From the sequence record PV946933.1: 64,000 bases of DNA. One strand, written 5' to 3'. Under the pieces are notes generated by a model. That model was not told the DNA's origin, ran no database searches, and saw only the letters and a list, made by a program, of their open reading frames with translations. Position 1 is the first letter of the stretch. Every line of letters starts with the position of its first letter. Below are positions 3,019 to 45,989 of the stretch, in pieces. The stretch is from a phage. The position numbers were made by a program, and so were the translations under genes.

Positions 3019-3546
3019 ATGAACGCTAAAGATATTTTCAACTTGGTAAATTACAACGATGGTAAATTTAAATCTGAAGCACAAAGTAAGTTCTTTAATG
3101 ACATCTCAATCGGAGGTGAAATCACAGTTGATGGAGGACAAATTTACAAATCCCGCTGGAATTGGATCGTTATTATTGATGAGATCGGTATTGTAGAAAT
3201 TTACAAGAATACGAATAAAAATCGTACATTACACTGGTCTCGTGATACTAACGAACAGTACAAAAAGGATAAAGCATCTAAATTATCTCGTGTAACTCAA
3301 GAAGATATTGAGTTCATCAAGAAAGATATTTTAATGTATGATAATTTAATTGCTGAAGAGCAAGCTGTTATTGATAAATTTGATGAGATTAAAGCTTCTC
3401 GTGAAATTCCTGATTTTATGAAAGAATCAGTAAATGAACGATACACTCTCATTTCAGAGCGTATTGAAACTTACAAAAAGCAAAGAGCTGAACGCCAAAA
3501 TACTCTTCGGAAGTTTGAAGAACGGTTAAAGACGGTACTCGCATAA
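3019..3546 (+). CDS. hypothetical protein with C-terminal coiled coil
   Basis: 175-aa ORF behind early promoter and SD; charged heptad-like C-terminus. Confidence 0.5.
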   Translation: MNAKDIFNLVNYNDGKFKSEAQSKFFNDISIGGEITVDGGQIYKSRWNWIVIIDEIGIVEIYKNTNKNRTLHWSRDTNEQYKKDKASKLSRVTQEDIEFIKKDILMYDNLIAEEQAVIDKFDEIKASREIPDFMKESVNERYTLISERIETYKKQRAERQNTLRKFEERLKTVLA

Positions 3547-3601
3547 CCGCTTTATACCAAGGATGGTATAATAGTTCTAAGCCCTTTTAATTGAGATTAT
3601 T

Positions 3602-4003
3602 ATGAAACGGTTGATAATTAAAAGATTGAATTTATTGATATGTTGTTTATGTGTAGTAGTTGCATACGGTTATTACGCAATTAATGATTATATGCATTAT
3701 AAAGATTATGATGTTACTGTAGTTAATACTATTACAGGAACACAAGGAAAGGGGTCTAGTTTATCGTTTATTGCTGTATATGAACTCAAAGACGGTTATA
3801 GATTTAGTGAATATATTTCCCCAGAGATGTATTCTTCAATAGAAAAAGGTGATAATATTACTGTAAGTTTACGTCCTTTCGACGTAAAACAGACATGGTT
3901 TGATAATATTGTTTGGTTCTTTGGAATGGCATTAGTTCAATCTATATGTGGTACTTATATAGTCTGTTCAATCTTATTCCACGTAATTAGTAAAATTGAG
4001 TGA
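3602..4003 (+). CDS. hypothetical membrane protein
   Basis: 133 aa; hydrophobic helices at N- and C-termini. Confidence 0.45.
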   Translation: MKRLIIKRLNLLICCLCVVVAYGYYAINDYMHYKDYDVTVVNTITGTQGKGSSLSFIAVYELKDGYRFSEYISPEMYSSIEKGDNITVSLRPFDVKQTWFDNIVWFFGMALVQSICGTYIVCSILFHVISKIE

Positions 4004-4066
4004 GGAAAATATGTCAGTAGTAATTAATAATGTCAATGCAGTAATTAAATCTTTAGTTAATAAAAA

Positions 4067-4900
4067 ATGATGAATGAATGGACTGTATTTCGTCGTGGAG
4101 AGCCAGATAAATTTTTTCATAGATTTAACCCAACTTTGGATTTGAATGTTATTGACAGAGATGTTCATGCCGAAATTTTAGATAAGTTTAAAGTTGATAT
4201 TGGCTTTGGATTAGAAAAACATTTACAGCGAACAAGCGGATCTGGAATGAGTTTATCTAATCGCATTATGAAAGCCCTTAATAAAATTGGAGCGTTGTCT
4301 CGCATTAATGCGAGTGAAATCCTTCGTAATTATAATAAAGGATATGACCTTTATGGTCGACTAATGCCGAAGTTATCATTTGACCAAATGATTGCAGATT
4401 TGTGGGAAAATCAGCGACGATTATTAGCATTAGGCGCTCGATTAGCTAAAGGTCTAGATAAACAAATGATTTTTAAGACCAATAATACAGAAGACCTTAA
4501 ATGCTTTAAATTTAGTATTCGTGGAGATGATTATTACATCAGAGCTCACTCTACAGATTATGTTAATATGGGGCATCATCTCTGTTTAGCTTTTGAAGTT
4601 TTAAAAGAAGCTGGAACGTTAGAATATTCATCTGGTGCTAAATGCCCGATTGGTTCAAATTGTATTTTGATTTATCGCCCGGATGAATCCAGTTCAACTA
4701 AATTGCCTACGAAACCTGTACCAGTTCGTAGTAATGAAAAACATTCTGAACAAATTGATTATTTTAATAAGCAAATTGAAGAGCTGAATATTTCTATTCA
4801 ACAGTATGACGATGAAATTTTCAGACTATCTGGATTGAGTAGTAAAGCTAAATCTGAGCGTGAAAAGTTAATTAAAATTGTTGATTTACTTAAATCTTAA
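4067..4900 (+). CDS. hypothetical protein with C-terminal coiled coil
   Basis: 277-aa ORF, tightly packed with neighbours. Confidence 0.5.
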   Translation: MMNEWTVFRRGEPDKFFHRFNPTLDLNVIDRDVHAEILDKFKVDIGFGLEKHLQRTSGSGMSLSNRIMKALNKIGALSRINASEILRNYNKGYDLYGRLMPKLSFDQMIADLWENQRRLLALGARLAKGLDKQMIFKTNNTEDLKCFKFSIRGDDYYIRAHSTDYVNMGHHLCLAFEVLKEAGTLEYSSGAKCPIGSNCILIYRPDESSSTKLPTKPVPVRSNEKHSEQIDYFNKQIEELNISIQQYDDEIFRLSGLSSKAKSEREKLIKIVDLLKS

Positions 4901-4908
4901 GGAACACC

Positions 4909-5937
4909 ATGAAAACTCGTTCTCAAATTGAAGATATGGTTCGTACTGCCAGTGATACTCGTAATGTTATGACATTTTTGTGTGAAAATAATTTAGACCC
5001 TGATAAAGTTAATCGTGCTATTCATCACTTTAAATATCTGAACAGCAGCGAATGGGTGCGTAATTTTAGCGAAGCGGGGTATATTACACAAATGACGGCT
5101 CGTGAGCAGCTCACCGATTTCTGTAAAACTATTGATTATAAAAATCCTCTATTTGTTCAAGGCGTTGGTCAAAGTAAGGTCGATTTATCATCTGGATTTT
5201 TCAATCCAAATCATTATCGTATTGAATGGAGATTTATTGCTCTGTTCCGTAGACAATTAAAGCAAATTTTATCAACTGCGAGTCGATTAAAAGGTTCTGA
5301 TATTAACTTAAAGAATCTGAAATTTGATGGTTATACTCTTCAGATGGAAGTAAGACCATTAAAAGAAAATAATAGAACTGCACGAATTAGCTTTAAACCT
5401 AATACAAAAAATTCTCTTTCAATTTGCGAATGCCTTAAATCGCAGTTGACAGAAGCATTTAAGTATATGGATGTTGTTGCCGCTGTTCAGTCTAAGATTT
5501 TACCTCGTTTTGAGCGATTTAAATTAGACACAACAACATATGAACTTGATATGATCGTTTCATTTAAATACGATTTTTTGAGAAAGGACGAAGTCCCGCA
5601 AGAGAAAAAGCAGGAAGTGCAAGATAACTTAAATTTAAATTTATCCAATTACTCATCAAACGATCCTAAATTTTGGATGTATAGCTCAGGTAATGAAGAT
5701 GCATGGAAATTCAATAAAGTGAATTTTCTTCCTGTTGAAAATCCGAGTCTTAAACCTGTTGAAAAATGGCATGCAGATGCGATTGAGAAGTCTCTTAAAG
5801 CAGTAGATGATGAACTCGTTAAAGCAACTAATGAAATGTTAGAAGTTGAAAAGGCGCTAGAAAAAGCTCAAGAAAAAGTCAAAAATCTCACGAAGCAACG
5901 TTCTAAACTGAACAATGCACTAAATGCACTGAACTAG
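4909..5937 (+). CDS. hypothetical protein (MKTR N-terminus / C-terminal coiled-coil family)
   Basis: 342 aa; starts MKTRSQI; C-terminal ~60 aa strongly coiled-coil-like. Confidence 0.55.
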   Translation: MKTRSQIEDMVRTASDTRNVMTFLCENNLDPDKVNRAIHHFKYLNSSEWVRNFSEAGYITQMTAREQLTDFCKTIDYKNPLFVQGVGQSKVDLSSGFFNPNHYRIEWRFIALFRRQLKQILSTASRLKGSDINLKNLKFDGYTLQMEVRPLKENNRTARISFKPNTKNSLSICECLKSQLTEAFKYMDVVAAVQSKILPRFERFKLDTTTYELDMIVSFKYDFLRKDEVPQEKKQEVQDNLNLNLSNYSSNDPKFWMYSSGNEDAWKFNKVNFLPVENPSLKPVEKWHADAIEKSLKAVDDELVKATNEMLEVEKALEKAQEKVKNLTKQRSKLNNALNALN

Positions 5938-5966
5938 TTTACTTTGCCACAAGGATGTGGTATAAT
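5937..5966 (+). promoter_or_regulatory. early promoter
   Basis: GTTTAC-N18-TGTGGTATAAT; near-identical 30-nt copy at 52074-52103. Confidence 0.6.
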
Positions 5967-5994
5967 GTTCTTACTTTCTACTGAGGAGATTAAT

Positions 5995-6996
5995 ATGACT
6001 CGTAACGAATATATCAAATCATTCAATAGCGTTATTGATGATAAAGCTATACCGATGTTTGGTCAAAATAGCGTTATTTCTATTATCAATCAATGGCTCA
6101 ATAGTGTTGACGCAAGTATTGTTTCTTCTGTTAAATTTATTCATGAAATTCGTAAAATTTCTAGCCGTGTAGATAAAGATGTTATCAAGAAAACCTTTAA
6201 AGAGTCTCGTCTTCTTTCATATTTGGTTAATCGGGATATTCTTGGTAATTTTGGGAAAGAAATTAAACGAACCAAAGATGTAGTAGGATATAATTGGTTC
6301 GGTGATGTTAATTCTTATCATCTTAATAATAAAGAAGACCCTGAGAATATTTTTACTCGTCGTTGGATTAGTAATTTCAGGCTTTTCAAAGGACAGATTC
6401 TAAAATCAGCTTCTAAATTATGTTATGGCGATTATCGTCAAATTCATCCTTTGGCTTCTGATATGATCATCATAAAAGAATATGAACTTGATAAAAATAA
6501 AGTAGCTATTTTTGTGAATTATGGATTTTTTACACCAGAAACTAACCAAAAGAACATTAATAAATTTTTCTCAATTGCTAGCACTATAACTCGTCAATTA
6601 GAAACCGCATTACTTTGTATGGAAACAGTAGAAAATATTCATACGTATCCTTTTAAGAATATATGCGGTTGGGAAGGATATAAAATTGTAGTTAGTCTTC
6701 GTGAAGTGAAATGTGCTTATTCATTAACTGATAAAGAAATTTATCAACAAAAATGTGAGGAAATTGTGAATACTCCTAAAGAAGAAACTACACTTGAGGA
6801 ACTAATGGATAATCTTGACGATTCGCCTGAACCAGTAGAAATTCGTCCAGAAGTTATTGCACTAGAAAAAGCTTATAAAGAAGCTCTAGAAATTTCTAAT
6901 AAAGCGCAGAAAGAATATGAGCAGGCTAAAAGGATTTGGGAAGAATCTGTTAATCGTCTGGATCGTCTTGAACAAGCTTTACAGTTAATTAAGTAA
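5995..6996 (+). CDS. hypothetical protein (MTR N-terminus / C-terminal coiled-coil family)
   Basis: ATG after GAGGAG downstream of promoter GTTTAC-N18-TATAAT; track ORF starts at TTG inside the promoter. Confidence 0.5.
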   Translation: MTRNEYIKSFNSVIDDKAIPMFGQNSVISIINQWLNSVDASIVSSVKFIHEIRKISSRVDKDVIKKTFKESRLLSYLVNRDILGNFGKEIKRTKDVVGYNWFGDVNSYHLNNKEDPENIFTRRWISNFRLFKGQILKSASKLCYGDYRQIHPLASDMIIIKEYELDKNKVAIFVNYGFFTPETNQKNINKFFSIASTITRQLETALLCMETVENIHTYPFKNICGWEGYKIVVSLREVKCAYSLTDKEIYQQKCEEIVNTPKEETTLEELMDNLDDSPEPVEIRPEVIALEKAYKEALEISNKAQKEYEQAKRIWEESVNRLDRLEQALQLIK

Positions 6997-7048
6997 TTTA
7001 AAGCCAAGGATGGCTCGGAGTATAAATCATTAACCAAGTGAGAAGAAC

Positions 7049-7978
7049 ATGAAAACTCGTAAACATTATATTGATTATTTTGACAGTCTTATTACTAAAC
7101 ATCGTAATTATCAGATCGGACACAGAGCAGTAATCAATAATATTCTTCGTGATTTCCTTCAATATGTTGGCCAGGAAAATCATATCTGTAAAGATACTCA
7201 AAACGCCTATTCTCATTCATTAGGCAATTTGCTTCAATGGTTTAAACGTTCTCGTCTGTTATCTTCTACTGTAGCTCGTGATAACATTGAAAACTTTATG
7301 AAGCCGAGCTTCATTAAATCTACGACATCTATAACCGATTTGGTTGAATTTACTATTGTTAACGATGTTAAAAAGACCCATTTGGCTGATTGGTTATCTA
7401 CCATTCCTGAAACTAAATTTGCTGATAAATTCGCCTGTCAATTCAATGACCAAGTGAATATGCTTTTTAAGCATGCTCGCAAACTGTTTACCGCGGGTGA
7501 TGACCGTACAAATACAGTTCATGTTAAGGACTGGGTTATTGCTGATGAAGTAACACACAAGCCAGGTGGTTCATCAGTATTAATTAATATCCAGGTTCCT
7601 TATTATTACTCACGTAATCTCGGCACCATGACAGCTAGAGAAATTAATAAGCACAACAAAACTATTCGTTCGTTGTCTTATAAACTCCGCATGATGCTAA
7701 AAATTATGGATGTAGTGGAAATGTATGATGAAACCGAAGATAATGGTTCAATGCTGTACAGTTCACGCATTCTAATTAAACTGAAGAACCCTAATACGTA
7801 TAAGCCAGTTGTAAAAGAACCTAAAGTAGAAAAGGTTGATAACTTGAGCGAAGAACGTGAATATCTCAATGCTCGTTTGATTGAAGTTGAAGCCCAGATT
7901 GCCGAACACACTAAATTGTTAAAAGCTCTTAATGCAAAAGCAAATGGTTTACGTAATGCTATTGAGGTATTGAAATGA
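7049..7978 (+). CDS. hypothetical protein (MKTR N-terminus / C-terminal coiled-coil family)
   Basis: 309 aa; starts MKTRKHY; C-terminal coiled coil. Confidence 0.55.
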   Translation: MKTRKHYIDYFDSLITKHRNYQIGHRAVINNILRDFLQYVGQENHICKDTQNAYSHSLGNLLQWFKRSRLLSSTVARDNIENFMKPSFIKSTTSITDLVEFTIVNDVKKTHLADWLSTIPETKFADKFACQFNDQVNMLFKHARKLFTAGDDRTNTVHVKDWVIADEVTHKPGGSSVLINIQVPYYYSRNLGTMTAREINKHNKTIRSLSYKLRMMLKIMDVVEMYDETEDNGSMLYSSRILIKLKNPNTYKPVVKEPKVEKVDNLSEEREYLNARLIEVEAQIAEHTKLLKALNAKANGLRNAIEVLK

Positions 7979-8522: not shown

Positions 8523-8786
8523 ATGTTTAAAGTATATGGTTATGATAGCAACATCCACAAATGCGTGTATTGCGATAATGCAAAACGTCTCTTGACTGTG
8601 AAGAAACAGCCGTTTGAATTTATCAACATTATGCCAGAAAAAGGTGTTTTTGATGATGAGAAAATCGCTGAGCTTCTGACTAAACTGGGTCGTGATACTC
8701 AAATTGGTTTGACGATGCCTCAGGTATTTGCTCCTGATGGAAGTCATATTGGTGGATTTGACCAATTGCGGGAATACTTTAAATGA
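8523..8786 (+). CDS. nrdC: glutaredoxin (T4 NrdC-type thioredoxin)
   Basis: 87 aa, CVYC redox motif; sequence recognised as T4 nrdC. Confidence 0.9.
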   Translation: MFKVYGYDSNIHKCVYCDNAKRLLTVKKQPFEFINIMPEKGVFDDEKIAELLTKLGRDTQIGLTMPQVFAPDGSHIGGFDQLREYFK

Positions 8787-45522: not shown

Positions 45523-45754
45523 AGACCAGTTTTATCTGCTTCAAGATAAAGTGAGTGAAATTTATGAAATAGCTTATAGTAAAAATCGCAAAAACGTGAA
45601 AATTGAATCGGGAAAGTTAATGCTTCAATTGGAAGAAATTGAACGAGATTTGATTGCATTAGAATTCTTTTGCGGTGAAGTGAAAACTGTTACAATCAGT
45701 GATTATGTTTTAGGTGAAATTAGCCATCTTTATAAGGCGGTTATTAATGATTGA
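45509..45754 (+). CDS. hypothetical protein (paralog of next ORF)
   Basis: 81 aa from candidate GTG after GAGGAAG; C-terminal similarity to 45747-45989. Confidence 0.35.
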   Translation: MEITKDQFYLLQDKVSEIYEIAYSKNRKNVKIESGKLMLQLEEIERDLIALEFFCGEVKTVTISDYVLGEISHLYKAVIND

Positions 45755-45989
45755 ATTAAGTTTGCATCAGTTTAAATCTCTTATGGCAAATGTTAAAGCT
45801 GTCATTCAAGAAAATCCAGGACCTGATAATGTTACTATTCGCGAAAAAGCTTTAAAGATAGTATACAGTCTTGAAGAGATACAAAAAGATATTGAATCTA
45901 TGGCAAAATTTATTGATGAGCCCATTAATAAAGTTTATATCCAAGATTATACTGTAGGTCAAATTCGCGATTTAGCGAGGAAAATTTAA
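45747..45989 (+). CDS. hypothetical protein (paralog of previous ORF)
   Basis: 80 aa from ATG 45747; shared LEEI...V.I.DY.(L/V)G(E/Q)I pattern. Confidence 0.4.
   Translation: MIELSLHQFKSLMANVKAVIQENPGPDNVTIREKALKIVYSLEEIQKDIESMAKFIDEPINKVYIQDYTVGQIRDLARKI

Follow-up and report, generated by a model that had tools for sequence, protein, structure and literature searches.

Why does a phage carry a run of neighbouring genes whose products share an N-terminal motif and a C-terminal coiled coil, and what do these products do? The question is raised by positions 3,019 to 7,978 of sequence record PV946933.1, a phage DNA of 64,000 nucleotides (nt) which was analysed as a whole and is referred to here as the window. 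The 4,960 bases of this region match 657 phage records at up to 97% identity, and nearly all of these are Tequatrovirus (T4-like phages of Escherichia, Shigella and Yersinia). The source phage is a Tequatrovirus (T4-like), and the array under study spans nrdC.8 to nrdC.3. Gene names were assigned by mapping to an annotated T4 record and to the T4 gene table in a published supplement. Homology over the full length unites the products of nrdC.3, nrdC.4 and nrdC.5 and, at a greater distance, that of nrdC.6; it is the whole gene that has been duplicated. On balance, these four genes are probably ancient tandem duplicates of one early protein of the Straboviridae and form an anti-defence battery. 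The function of one member, nrdC.5, is already known (PMC9391042); what is new here is the superfamily which joins nrdC.6, nrdC.5, nrdC.4 and nrdC.3, the architecture common to its members, and their constrained heptad tail.

Homology of NrdC.3, NrdC.4, NrdC.5 and NrdC.6

All members lie on the plus strand. The gene nrdC.6 (4067-4900) encodes 277 residues and belongs to phrog_2257; nrdC.5 (4909-5937) encodes 342 residues starting MKTRSQI and belongs to phrog_2351 and DUF7235 (PF23882). They are followed by nrdC.4 (5995-6996; 333 residues from the ATG, starting MTRNEYI; PF26897 and phrog_1435) and nrdC.3 (7049-7978; 309 residues, starting MKTRKHY; phrog_1435). A fifth protein with a similar C-terminus, NrdC.8 (3019-3546; 175 residues), has a match to phrog_2274 only. 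A first-pass annotation, made from the sequence alone, had given the coordinates, sizes and N-termini of these open reading frames (ORFs) exactly, and proposed that all five genes form an old, diverged, duplicated family in which variable N-terminal domains are attached to a conserved C-terminal coiled coil.

Overall identity is low, as that annotation had noted. In an all-against-all BLASTP comparison of the five proteins, the sole significant pair is NrdC.3 and NrdC.4 (26% over 231 residues, E 3e-7). Both match phrog_1435 over their full length (nrdC.4 E 3e-168; nrdC.3 E 5e-117), and the precomputed PF26897 label is carried by every NrdC.4 homologue and by the section of a fusion protein, described below, that derives from NrdC.3. 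NrdC.5 matches PF23882 along its full length (414 bits, E 5e-124; gathering score 30 bits); a Pfam hmmscan of the five proteins returned nothing besides this DUF7235 match. The databases keep PF26897/phrog_1435, a group of unknown function, apart from DUF7235 and phrog_2257; they are joined here. On sequence grounds, nrdC.4, nrdC.3 and nrdC.6 are related to DUF7235 at the superfamily level only.

Profile comparisons reach further. Family profiles were built from the orthologues in 14 related contigs and in large protein collections. The NrdC.4 and NrdC.3 families are joined by hhalign with a probability of 97.6% (E 3e-12), and the NrdC.5 and NrdC.4 families with a probability of 67% (E 5e-5), residues 53-342 of the former being aligned with residues 68-333 of the latter. 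When the tails are removed, NrdC.4 and NrdC.3 still match (E 1e-12), as do NrdC.5 and NrdC.4 across the helix/hairpin core (E 1e-3). Comparisons confined to the C-terminus are too weak by themselves to establish homology of the tails; the best of these is NrdC.5 with NrdC.3 (E 1.4e-4, probability 52%).

A merged alignment of 23 sequences from the NrdC.3, NrdC.4 and NrdC.5 families has seven positions which are invariant across all three: T3, R4, F71, K167, V190, L334 and A337. The invariance of T3 and R4 indicates that the N-terminal motif is a feature of the family and not a product of chance. The motifs common to the three families are a (K)TRxEY start, [AN][RK][DE]xLxxF[GC], ILxxAx[RK]L, A[LF]xxMxxVE and a C-terminal LxxA[LIV]xxLK. 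The paralogues are less than 20% identical overall. A DNA repeat search found no long identity between gene copies, and only short matches, for example ATGAAAACTCGT, which nrdC.5 and nrdC.3 share at their starts; the duplications are therefore old, and the copies have not undergone gene conversion recently. The merged profile, used in an exhaustive HMMER search, retrieved only 25 cluster representatives (E <= 1e-3) out of 1.84 billion, and the family profile had no match among PDB sequences. When the superfamily hidden Markov model (HMM) was run on the ORFs of the window, it identified nrdC.3, nrdC.4, nrdC.5 and nrdC.6 only; nrdC.6 ranks fourth (E 2.7e-4), and the next match has an E of 0.013.

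NrdC.6 is the most distant member, and gave no signal against the shallow family profiles. It is linked to the others by a bridging protein (P0152), which was found with the NrdC.3/NrdC.4/NrdC.5 profile in 1.84e9 proteins (E 2.8e-7; hhalign probability 96%) and which matches NrdC.6 by BLASTP (E 1e-8). The matching segments of P0152 and NrdC.6 are ENQRRLLALGARLAKG against ANRRLFLTLAARLCKG and EIFRLSGLSSKAKSEREKLIKIVDLLKS against EVFRLSSMCAKMKAQRFKLTKAIEALNA. When P0152 is excluded, the NrdC.6 family matches the extended superfamily alignment in hhalign with a probability of 91% (E 1.1e-6), and without the tail the match stands at E 1.2e-4; six neighbouring genes compared with the same alignment as a control gave E >= 0.07. 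The stretch that is realigned with confidence pairs NrdC.6 63-131 with NrdC.5 45-131 and is distant from the tail. All 14 NrdC.6 orthologues rank directly behind the true members with the superfamily HMM.

NrdC.8 is different. Its comparison with the superfamily gave an hhalign E of 0.19 and a probability of 0.3%, and the superfamily HMM and pairwise comparisons were also negative. As far as sequence comparison can tell, it is a separate neighbour with a coiled-coil tail and no detectable relationship to nrdC.3-nrdC.6. The proposed family of five is thus reduced to four members which profile alignment does join. The idea of variable N-terminal domains on a common module has to give way to homology from end to end: there are conserved motifs outside the tail, and the NrdC.5 and NrdC.4 models agree in the predicted order of structural elements and in their structural neighbours.

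Architecture and heptad tails

AlphaFold2 models were obtained for NrdC.5 (predicted local distance difference test, pLDDT, 72) and NrdC.4 (pLDDT 79), and it is these two models that the comparison of element order covers. They have the same order: a helical N-terminal part, hairpin, helix, hairpin, helix, hairpin, a low-confidence linker and a long helix. Foldseek searches of BFVD with either model return the same uncharacterised Straboviridae proteins (E 1e-7 to 2e-5), among them A0A2S1GM98 of Erwinia phage Cronus, A0A2Z4QAR2 of Klebsiella phage Mineola and A0A0A0PZG4 of Pectobacterium phage PM2; no characterised protein is found among the significant BFVD matches of the two models. Each copy probably follows one plan: a helical N-terminal subdomain comes first, then an alpha/beta core of beta-hairpins and helices, then a disordered linker of 30-50 residues, and lastly an amphipathic helix of some 50 residues in one heptad register, the end of which reads LxxA[LIV]xxLK. 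The N-terminal subdomain of NrdC.3, NrdC.4 and NrdC.5 opens with the (K)TRxEY helix start.

In both models the tail is a single continuous helix (NrdC.5 residues 284-341, nt 5758-5931; NrdC.4 residues 285-332, nt 6847-6990), which agrees with the C-terminal coiled coils expected from the first reading. The tail occupies residues 227-277 of NrdC.6 (nt 4745-4897) and residues 264-309 of NrdC.3, and NrdC.8 has a heptad-like C-terminal helix at residues 134-175 (nt 3418-3543). One unbroken heptad register fits the final 42-56 residues of all five proteins. Hydrophobic residues occupy 15/16 of the a and d positions in NrdC.5, 12/14 in both NrdC.6 and NrdC.4, 11/13 in NrdC.3 and 9/12 in NrdC.8, compared with 17-30% of the other positions. 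The number of shuffled sequences that match the observed a/d contrast, per 20000, is 0 for NrdC.5, 1 for NrdC.6, 25 for NrdC.4, 116 for NrdC.3 and 84 for NrdC.8. A coiled coil was taken to require core hydrophobics in one register over at least four heptads, beyond chance, and this is seen in all five tails. Among the C-termini of the 86 plus-strand window ORFs of at least 80 residues, the five rank 1, 2, 3, 5 and 6 in heptad character, so that the charged, heptad-like ends described at first reading are borne out for every one of the proteins. A Fourier test of hydropathy at a period of 3.5 is strong for NrdC.4 (z 8.1) and NrdC.5 (z 6.8), moderate for NrdC.6 (z 3.0) and weak for NrdC.3 and NrdC.8 (z 1.6-1.7). 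Outside the array, the C-terminus of an unrelated plus-strand ORF of 80 residues (45747-45989) has a z of 7.3 at the 3.5-residue periodicity and is tied for rank 4-5 in heptad contrast.

Insertions and deletions in the tails are of exactly seven residues. In the merged alignment, the tail of the NrdC.4 family is one heptad shorter than those of NrdC.5 and NrdC.3, and the NrdC.5 tail of Tequatrovirus has one heptad more than its orthologues in other genera. In comparisons across genera, conservation is higher in the last 45 residues than in the remainder for NrdC.4 (64% vs 46% identity), NrdC.6 (63% vs 44%), NrdC.3 (79% vs 58%) and NrdC.8 (76% vs 66%); the tail of NrdC.5 is conserved no better than the rest of the protein (28% vs 27%). 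The pattern fits a structurally constrained coiled coil. The heptad-sized indels and the long exposed helices of the models lend indirect support to oligomerisation through the tail, which would be the role of this segment.

Distribution, divergence and neighbouring genes

The family is found in phages only, and is restricted to the Straboviridae. The genes nrdC.8, nrdC.6, nrdC.5 and nrdC.4 are syntenic throughout the 14 related contigs; nrdC.3 is found in Tequatrovirus only and is absent from loci L007-L015. Six loci from other genera were examined: four of them (Winklervirus, Jiaodavirus, Karamvirus and Lazarusvirus) have one member before nrdC, and no family member was found in the other two (Aeromonas and Vibrio). 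In T4 transposon data, nrdC.3 to nrdC.8 are all non-essential. Divergence is rapid. Between Tequatrovirus and other Tevenvirinae genera, the family is 27-55% identical and neighbouring genes are 68-87% identical; the real NrdC is 83-100% identical. There are two allele types of nrdC.3 within Tequatrovirus which share 61% identity, and the window copy is 61% identical to the T4 allele; alleles of the single Lazarusvirus member are 36% identical.

Members have also been lost or fused. In Escherichia phage Pinarejo, all of nrdC.6 is gone but the last 47 codons (L022 5001-5141); the resulting "tail-only" match was considered as a fusion and rejected, as it is a deletion remnant. Phage LYE-01 (L023) is without nrdC.4 and has a single gene of 308 residues, of the nrdC.3 type by length, at the nrdC.4/nrdC.3 position. 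In a 167-kb assembly, protein P0056 is an in-frame nrdC.5::nrdC.3 deletion fusion in which the middle of NrdC.5 is joined to the C-terminal half of NrdC.3 (...WKFNKVN followed by MLFKHARKLF... at the junction) and nrdC.4 is removed; it is an example of recombination between paralogues within the array. A further candidate, P0140 (173 residues), has a different N-terminal part of about 120 residues and a tail identical (53/53 residues) to that of NrdC.5 in other Tequatrovirus phages. Among 50,697 phage records there is no match to its N-terminal part. The protein comes from an ENA contig of 803 bp and could reflect either chimeric assembly or genuine module swapping; it was not used. Co-evolution of tail length, suggested by a 33-residue co-deletion in NrdC.8 and NrdC.4 of one locus (L014), was also rejected. 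Set against its close relative L013, this record (IMGVR_UViG_2974741249_000001, which matches the 155-kb phage vB_EcoM_005) is missing about 100 bp every 1-2 kb, and these gaps account for the apparent 33-residue deletions in NrdC.8, NrdC.4 and NrdC.5; they are an assembly or record artefact.

The array is preceded by nrdC.11, nrdC.10 and nrdC.9 and followed by nrdC.2, nrdC.1, nrdC, gene 49 and nrdD. The genuine NrdC is encoded by a separate gene (8523-8786). Between nrdC.8 and nrdC.6 lies nrdC.7 (3602-4003, plus strand; phrog_2547), which is outside the family; its translation has hydrophobic segments at the N- and C-terminal ends, it is predicted to be a small membrane protein, and no heptad signal was found in it. 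The product of nrdC.11 (458-1471) matches the RlaP nucleotidyltransferase family (E 1e-11). That of nrdC.10 (1574-2554) is a P-loop NTPase with weak STAND/AAA-type matches, and is conserved well beyond the T4-like phages (1312 records, including Vibrio, Xanthomonas, Agrobacterium and jumbo phages). Between these two genes, a strong GC-rich hairpin followed by a T-run (1473-1492; AGGGAGCCTTCGGGCTCCCT TTTTTATTTC) resembles a plus-strand terminator. A large proportion of the GenBank phage records give the name thioredoxin to homologues of nrdC.3-nrdC.11, none of which has a thioredoxin-family match or a CxxC motif; these labels have apparently been copied from the positional gene names.

Two starts in the array should be noted. 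The mechanically called ORF of nrdC.4 opens at a TTG at 5944, ahead of the ATG at 5995, and some gene callers start the gene 10 codons earlier (MFLLSTEEIN-MTRNEYI); the start at 5995 is favoured because the MTRNEYI start is kept in other genera. A promoter-like match (TTTACT-17-TATAAT; sigma-70-like with an extended -10, TG) lies in 5938-5994 and overlaps a small hairpin just 5' of the nrdC.4 ATG. Matches in a promoter scan were at chance level, and transcription units are not claimed. In T4 and other Tequatrovirus phages nrdC.6 opens 19 codons earlier (MSVVINNVNAVIKSLVNKK-MMNEW...) and encodes 296 residues. The upstream ATG is present here too, at 4011, and the A-run at 4061-4066 is one base shorter; this puts the upstream start out of frame with a stop at 4068-4070, so that the ORF runs from the ATG at 4067. 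A sequencing error in the homopolymer would explain this difference (4011-4070), as would a genuine frameshift.

A putative anti-defence battery

T4 nrdC.5 overcomes Dsr1, a bacterial sirtuin defence. A T4 deletion mutant fails to grow on E. coli ECOR17 and on MG1655 carrying dsr1 from ECOR17, and nrdC.5 supplied in trans restores growth of the mutant on Dsr1 cells (Srikant, Guegler and Laub, eLife 2022, PMC9391042). The window gene at 4909-5937 is the orthologue of T4 nrdC.5 (95% identity, full-length PF23882). The first-pass view that function could not be read from the sequence is thus outdated for this gene, for which a phenotype was already published; its description of a host-interaction family holds up well, given this phenotype and the non-essentiality, fast evolution and variable copy number of the genes. 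The T4 paper is silent on the family relationship, architecture and mechanism, and a literature search for DUF7235, "anti-Dsr1" and "Dsr1 inhibitor" found nothing beyond it. The motifs and coiled-coil tail of T4 NrdC.5, and probably its fold order, recur in nrdC.4, nrdC.3 and nrdC.6; the three window paralogues differ from it in that they score under the DUF7235 threshold and are not known to have a target.

According to a 2026 preprint (PMC12803255), a phage major capsid protein triggers E. coli Dsr1 by way of a tetratricopeptide repeat (TPR) sensor, and this sensor is also found in Avs7 and in proteins with other effectors. Two other products of the same non-essential early stretch, encoded on the downstream side of the array, have the same type of role as NrdC.5: gp49.2 inhibits OLD (PMC13096335) and NrdC.1 inhibits Septu (bioRxiv 10.1101/2025.11.20.689424). 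These are small proteins, unrelated to the family and not duplicated. Both lend weight to a reading of the region as an anti-defence island.

The explanation proposed for nrdC.6, nrdC.5, nrdC.4 and nrdC.3 is as follows. Each copy would be made early in infection and would oligomerise through its coiled-coil tail, from which it would gain avidity. The fast-evolving globular head of each copy would bind a different immune sensor of the host and block it before its triggers, late phage proteins such as the capsid protein, accumulate. The family shows the signature of an arms race: fast divergence, allele turnover, copy-number variation, non-essentiality and small family size. Direct binding of sensors by the NrdC.5 family, its timing before capsid accumulation and the avidity of the tail are suggested by analogy with DSAD1 and DSR2. 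DSAD1, from an SPbeta-type phage, is a phage protein which neutralises a SIR2-effector defence that senses a virion protein (PMC10981675, PMC11087589), and published structures place it on the sensor region of DSR2. It serves as a working analogy. DSAD1 differs in its target (DSR2, not Dsr1), in the trigger of that target (tail tube, not major capsid protein) and in the phage group it comes from.

Several observations weigh against a four-member anti-defence battery. BLASTP finds a single significant pair, and nrdC.3, nrdC.4, nrdC.6 and nrdC.8 have no PF23882 match in Pfam hmmscan even at E <= 1. By sequence alone the link between NrdC.5 and NrdC.4 is moderate (67% probability, from shallow alignments), and that to NrdC.6 rests on profiles and on one protein, P0152, from a single metagenomic contig of 1.9 kb. 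Confidence in the models is moderate, and their global template modelling scores (TM-scores) to the BFVD matches are low (0.2-0.5), which is attributed to the free placement of the tail. In the HIDEN-SEQ data covered here, nrdC.3, nrdC.4 and nrdC.6 have no significant fitness effect (q = 1.0). No published mechanism for the action of NrdC.5 on Dsr1 was found as far as the literature search reached, and the putative anti-defence role of nrdC.3, nrdC.4 and nrdC.6 is suggested by their kinship with nrdC.5.

The strongest alternative concerns the tail. The C-terminal helix could be a common docking element, through which paralogues form mixed bundles (a multi-headed complex) or bind one common host or phage partner. 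The LxxA[LIV]xxLK end is kept in spite of the very low overall identity, and L334, A337, L341 and K342 are invariant or nearly so; a strict regular expression for this end, derived post hoc, matches the four paralogues only among 232 window ORFs. The greater conservation of the tail over the globular part in four of the five families, and the variation of its length in whole heptads only, are also in keeping with docking. However, core leucines and alanines and a basic C-terminal end are widespread among coiled coils of every kind, and in NrdC.5 the tail is no better conserved than the remainder. Plasmid-borne nrdC.5 alone rescues the deletion mutant (the mutant's other missing genes left aside), and phages without nrdC.4 or nrdC.6 are viable isolates. 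Docking of this kind is a possibility well behind self-association of each copy as proposed above.

A less likely alternative is that the alpha/beta core derives from, or mimics, a neck protein of the tail-terminator or tail-completion type (lambda gpU-like), and that the NrdC proteins are early decoys for host sensors which recognise conserved folds of virion proteins. Tail terminator and completion proteins (lambda gpU, SPP1 gp17-like, T5 p142 and the Mu terminator) have no sequence similarity to the NrdC proteins, which are about three times larger, have extra helical and coiled-coil parts and are encoded in an early-gene region. There is no sign that NrdC.3-6 are virion components. Neither Pfam nor PHROG gave a tail-protein match, and PDB sequences gave no match at all. 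Slightly more doubtful still is a combination of decoy and docking, in which a tail-terminator-like neck protein was duplicated into the early region and its copies form a mixed-bundle, multi-headed decoy that would occupy several Dsr1/Avs7-type TPR sensors and their relatives at once.

It is improbable that nrdC.3 and nrdC.4 are the only true paralogues and that the likeness of nrdC.5 and nrdC.6 is due to convergent low complexity of the coiled coil and to chance. Coiled coils are known to produce false profile matches, the C-terminus-only comparisons are weak, and Pfam separates DUF7235 from PF26897. Against this, the matches of NrdC.5 with NrdC.4 and of NrdC.6 with the superfamily persist when tails are taken off, conserved motifs sit outside the tail, and the realigned match of NrdC.6 lies at NrdC.5 45-131; the element order and structural neighbours agree in the NrdC.5 and NrdC.4 models, and the neighbouring control genes stay at E >= 0.07. 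An accessory role in phage nucleotide or DNA metabolism, in which the tail would serve to assemble complexes, is very improbable: it is suggested by the position of the array between nrdC.10/nrdC.11 and nrdC, gene 49 and nrdD and by the thioredoxin labels of many GenBank records, but the nrd names are positional, the proteins have no thioredoxin, glutaredoxin or any other enzyme family match in Pfam and no CxxC motif in their translations, the genes are non-essential, fast-diverging and variably present, unlike real NrdC, and the nrdC.5 phenotype is specific to defence.

Even in the reference phage T4, nrdC.3, nrdC.4 and nrdC.6 still go by the label "hypothetical" or by the mistaken one of "thioredoxin". 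As full-length paralogues of the one known Dsr1 antagonist, if that is what they are, they would become three concrete candidate inhibitors of other defences, and the first targets to consider would be found among the many defence proteins in which the Dsr1/Avs7 sensor is combined with other effectors. The fast-evolving head and constrained coiled-coil tail provide an architecture for work on the mechanism of NrdC.5. The family is also an example of how tandem duplication and allele turnover enlarge an anti-defence repertoire within a phage backbone that is itself conserved.

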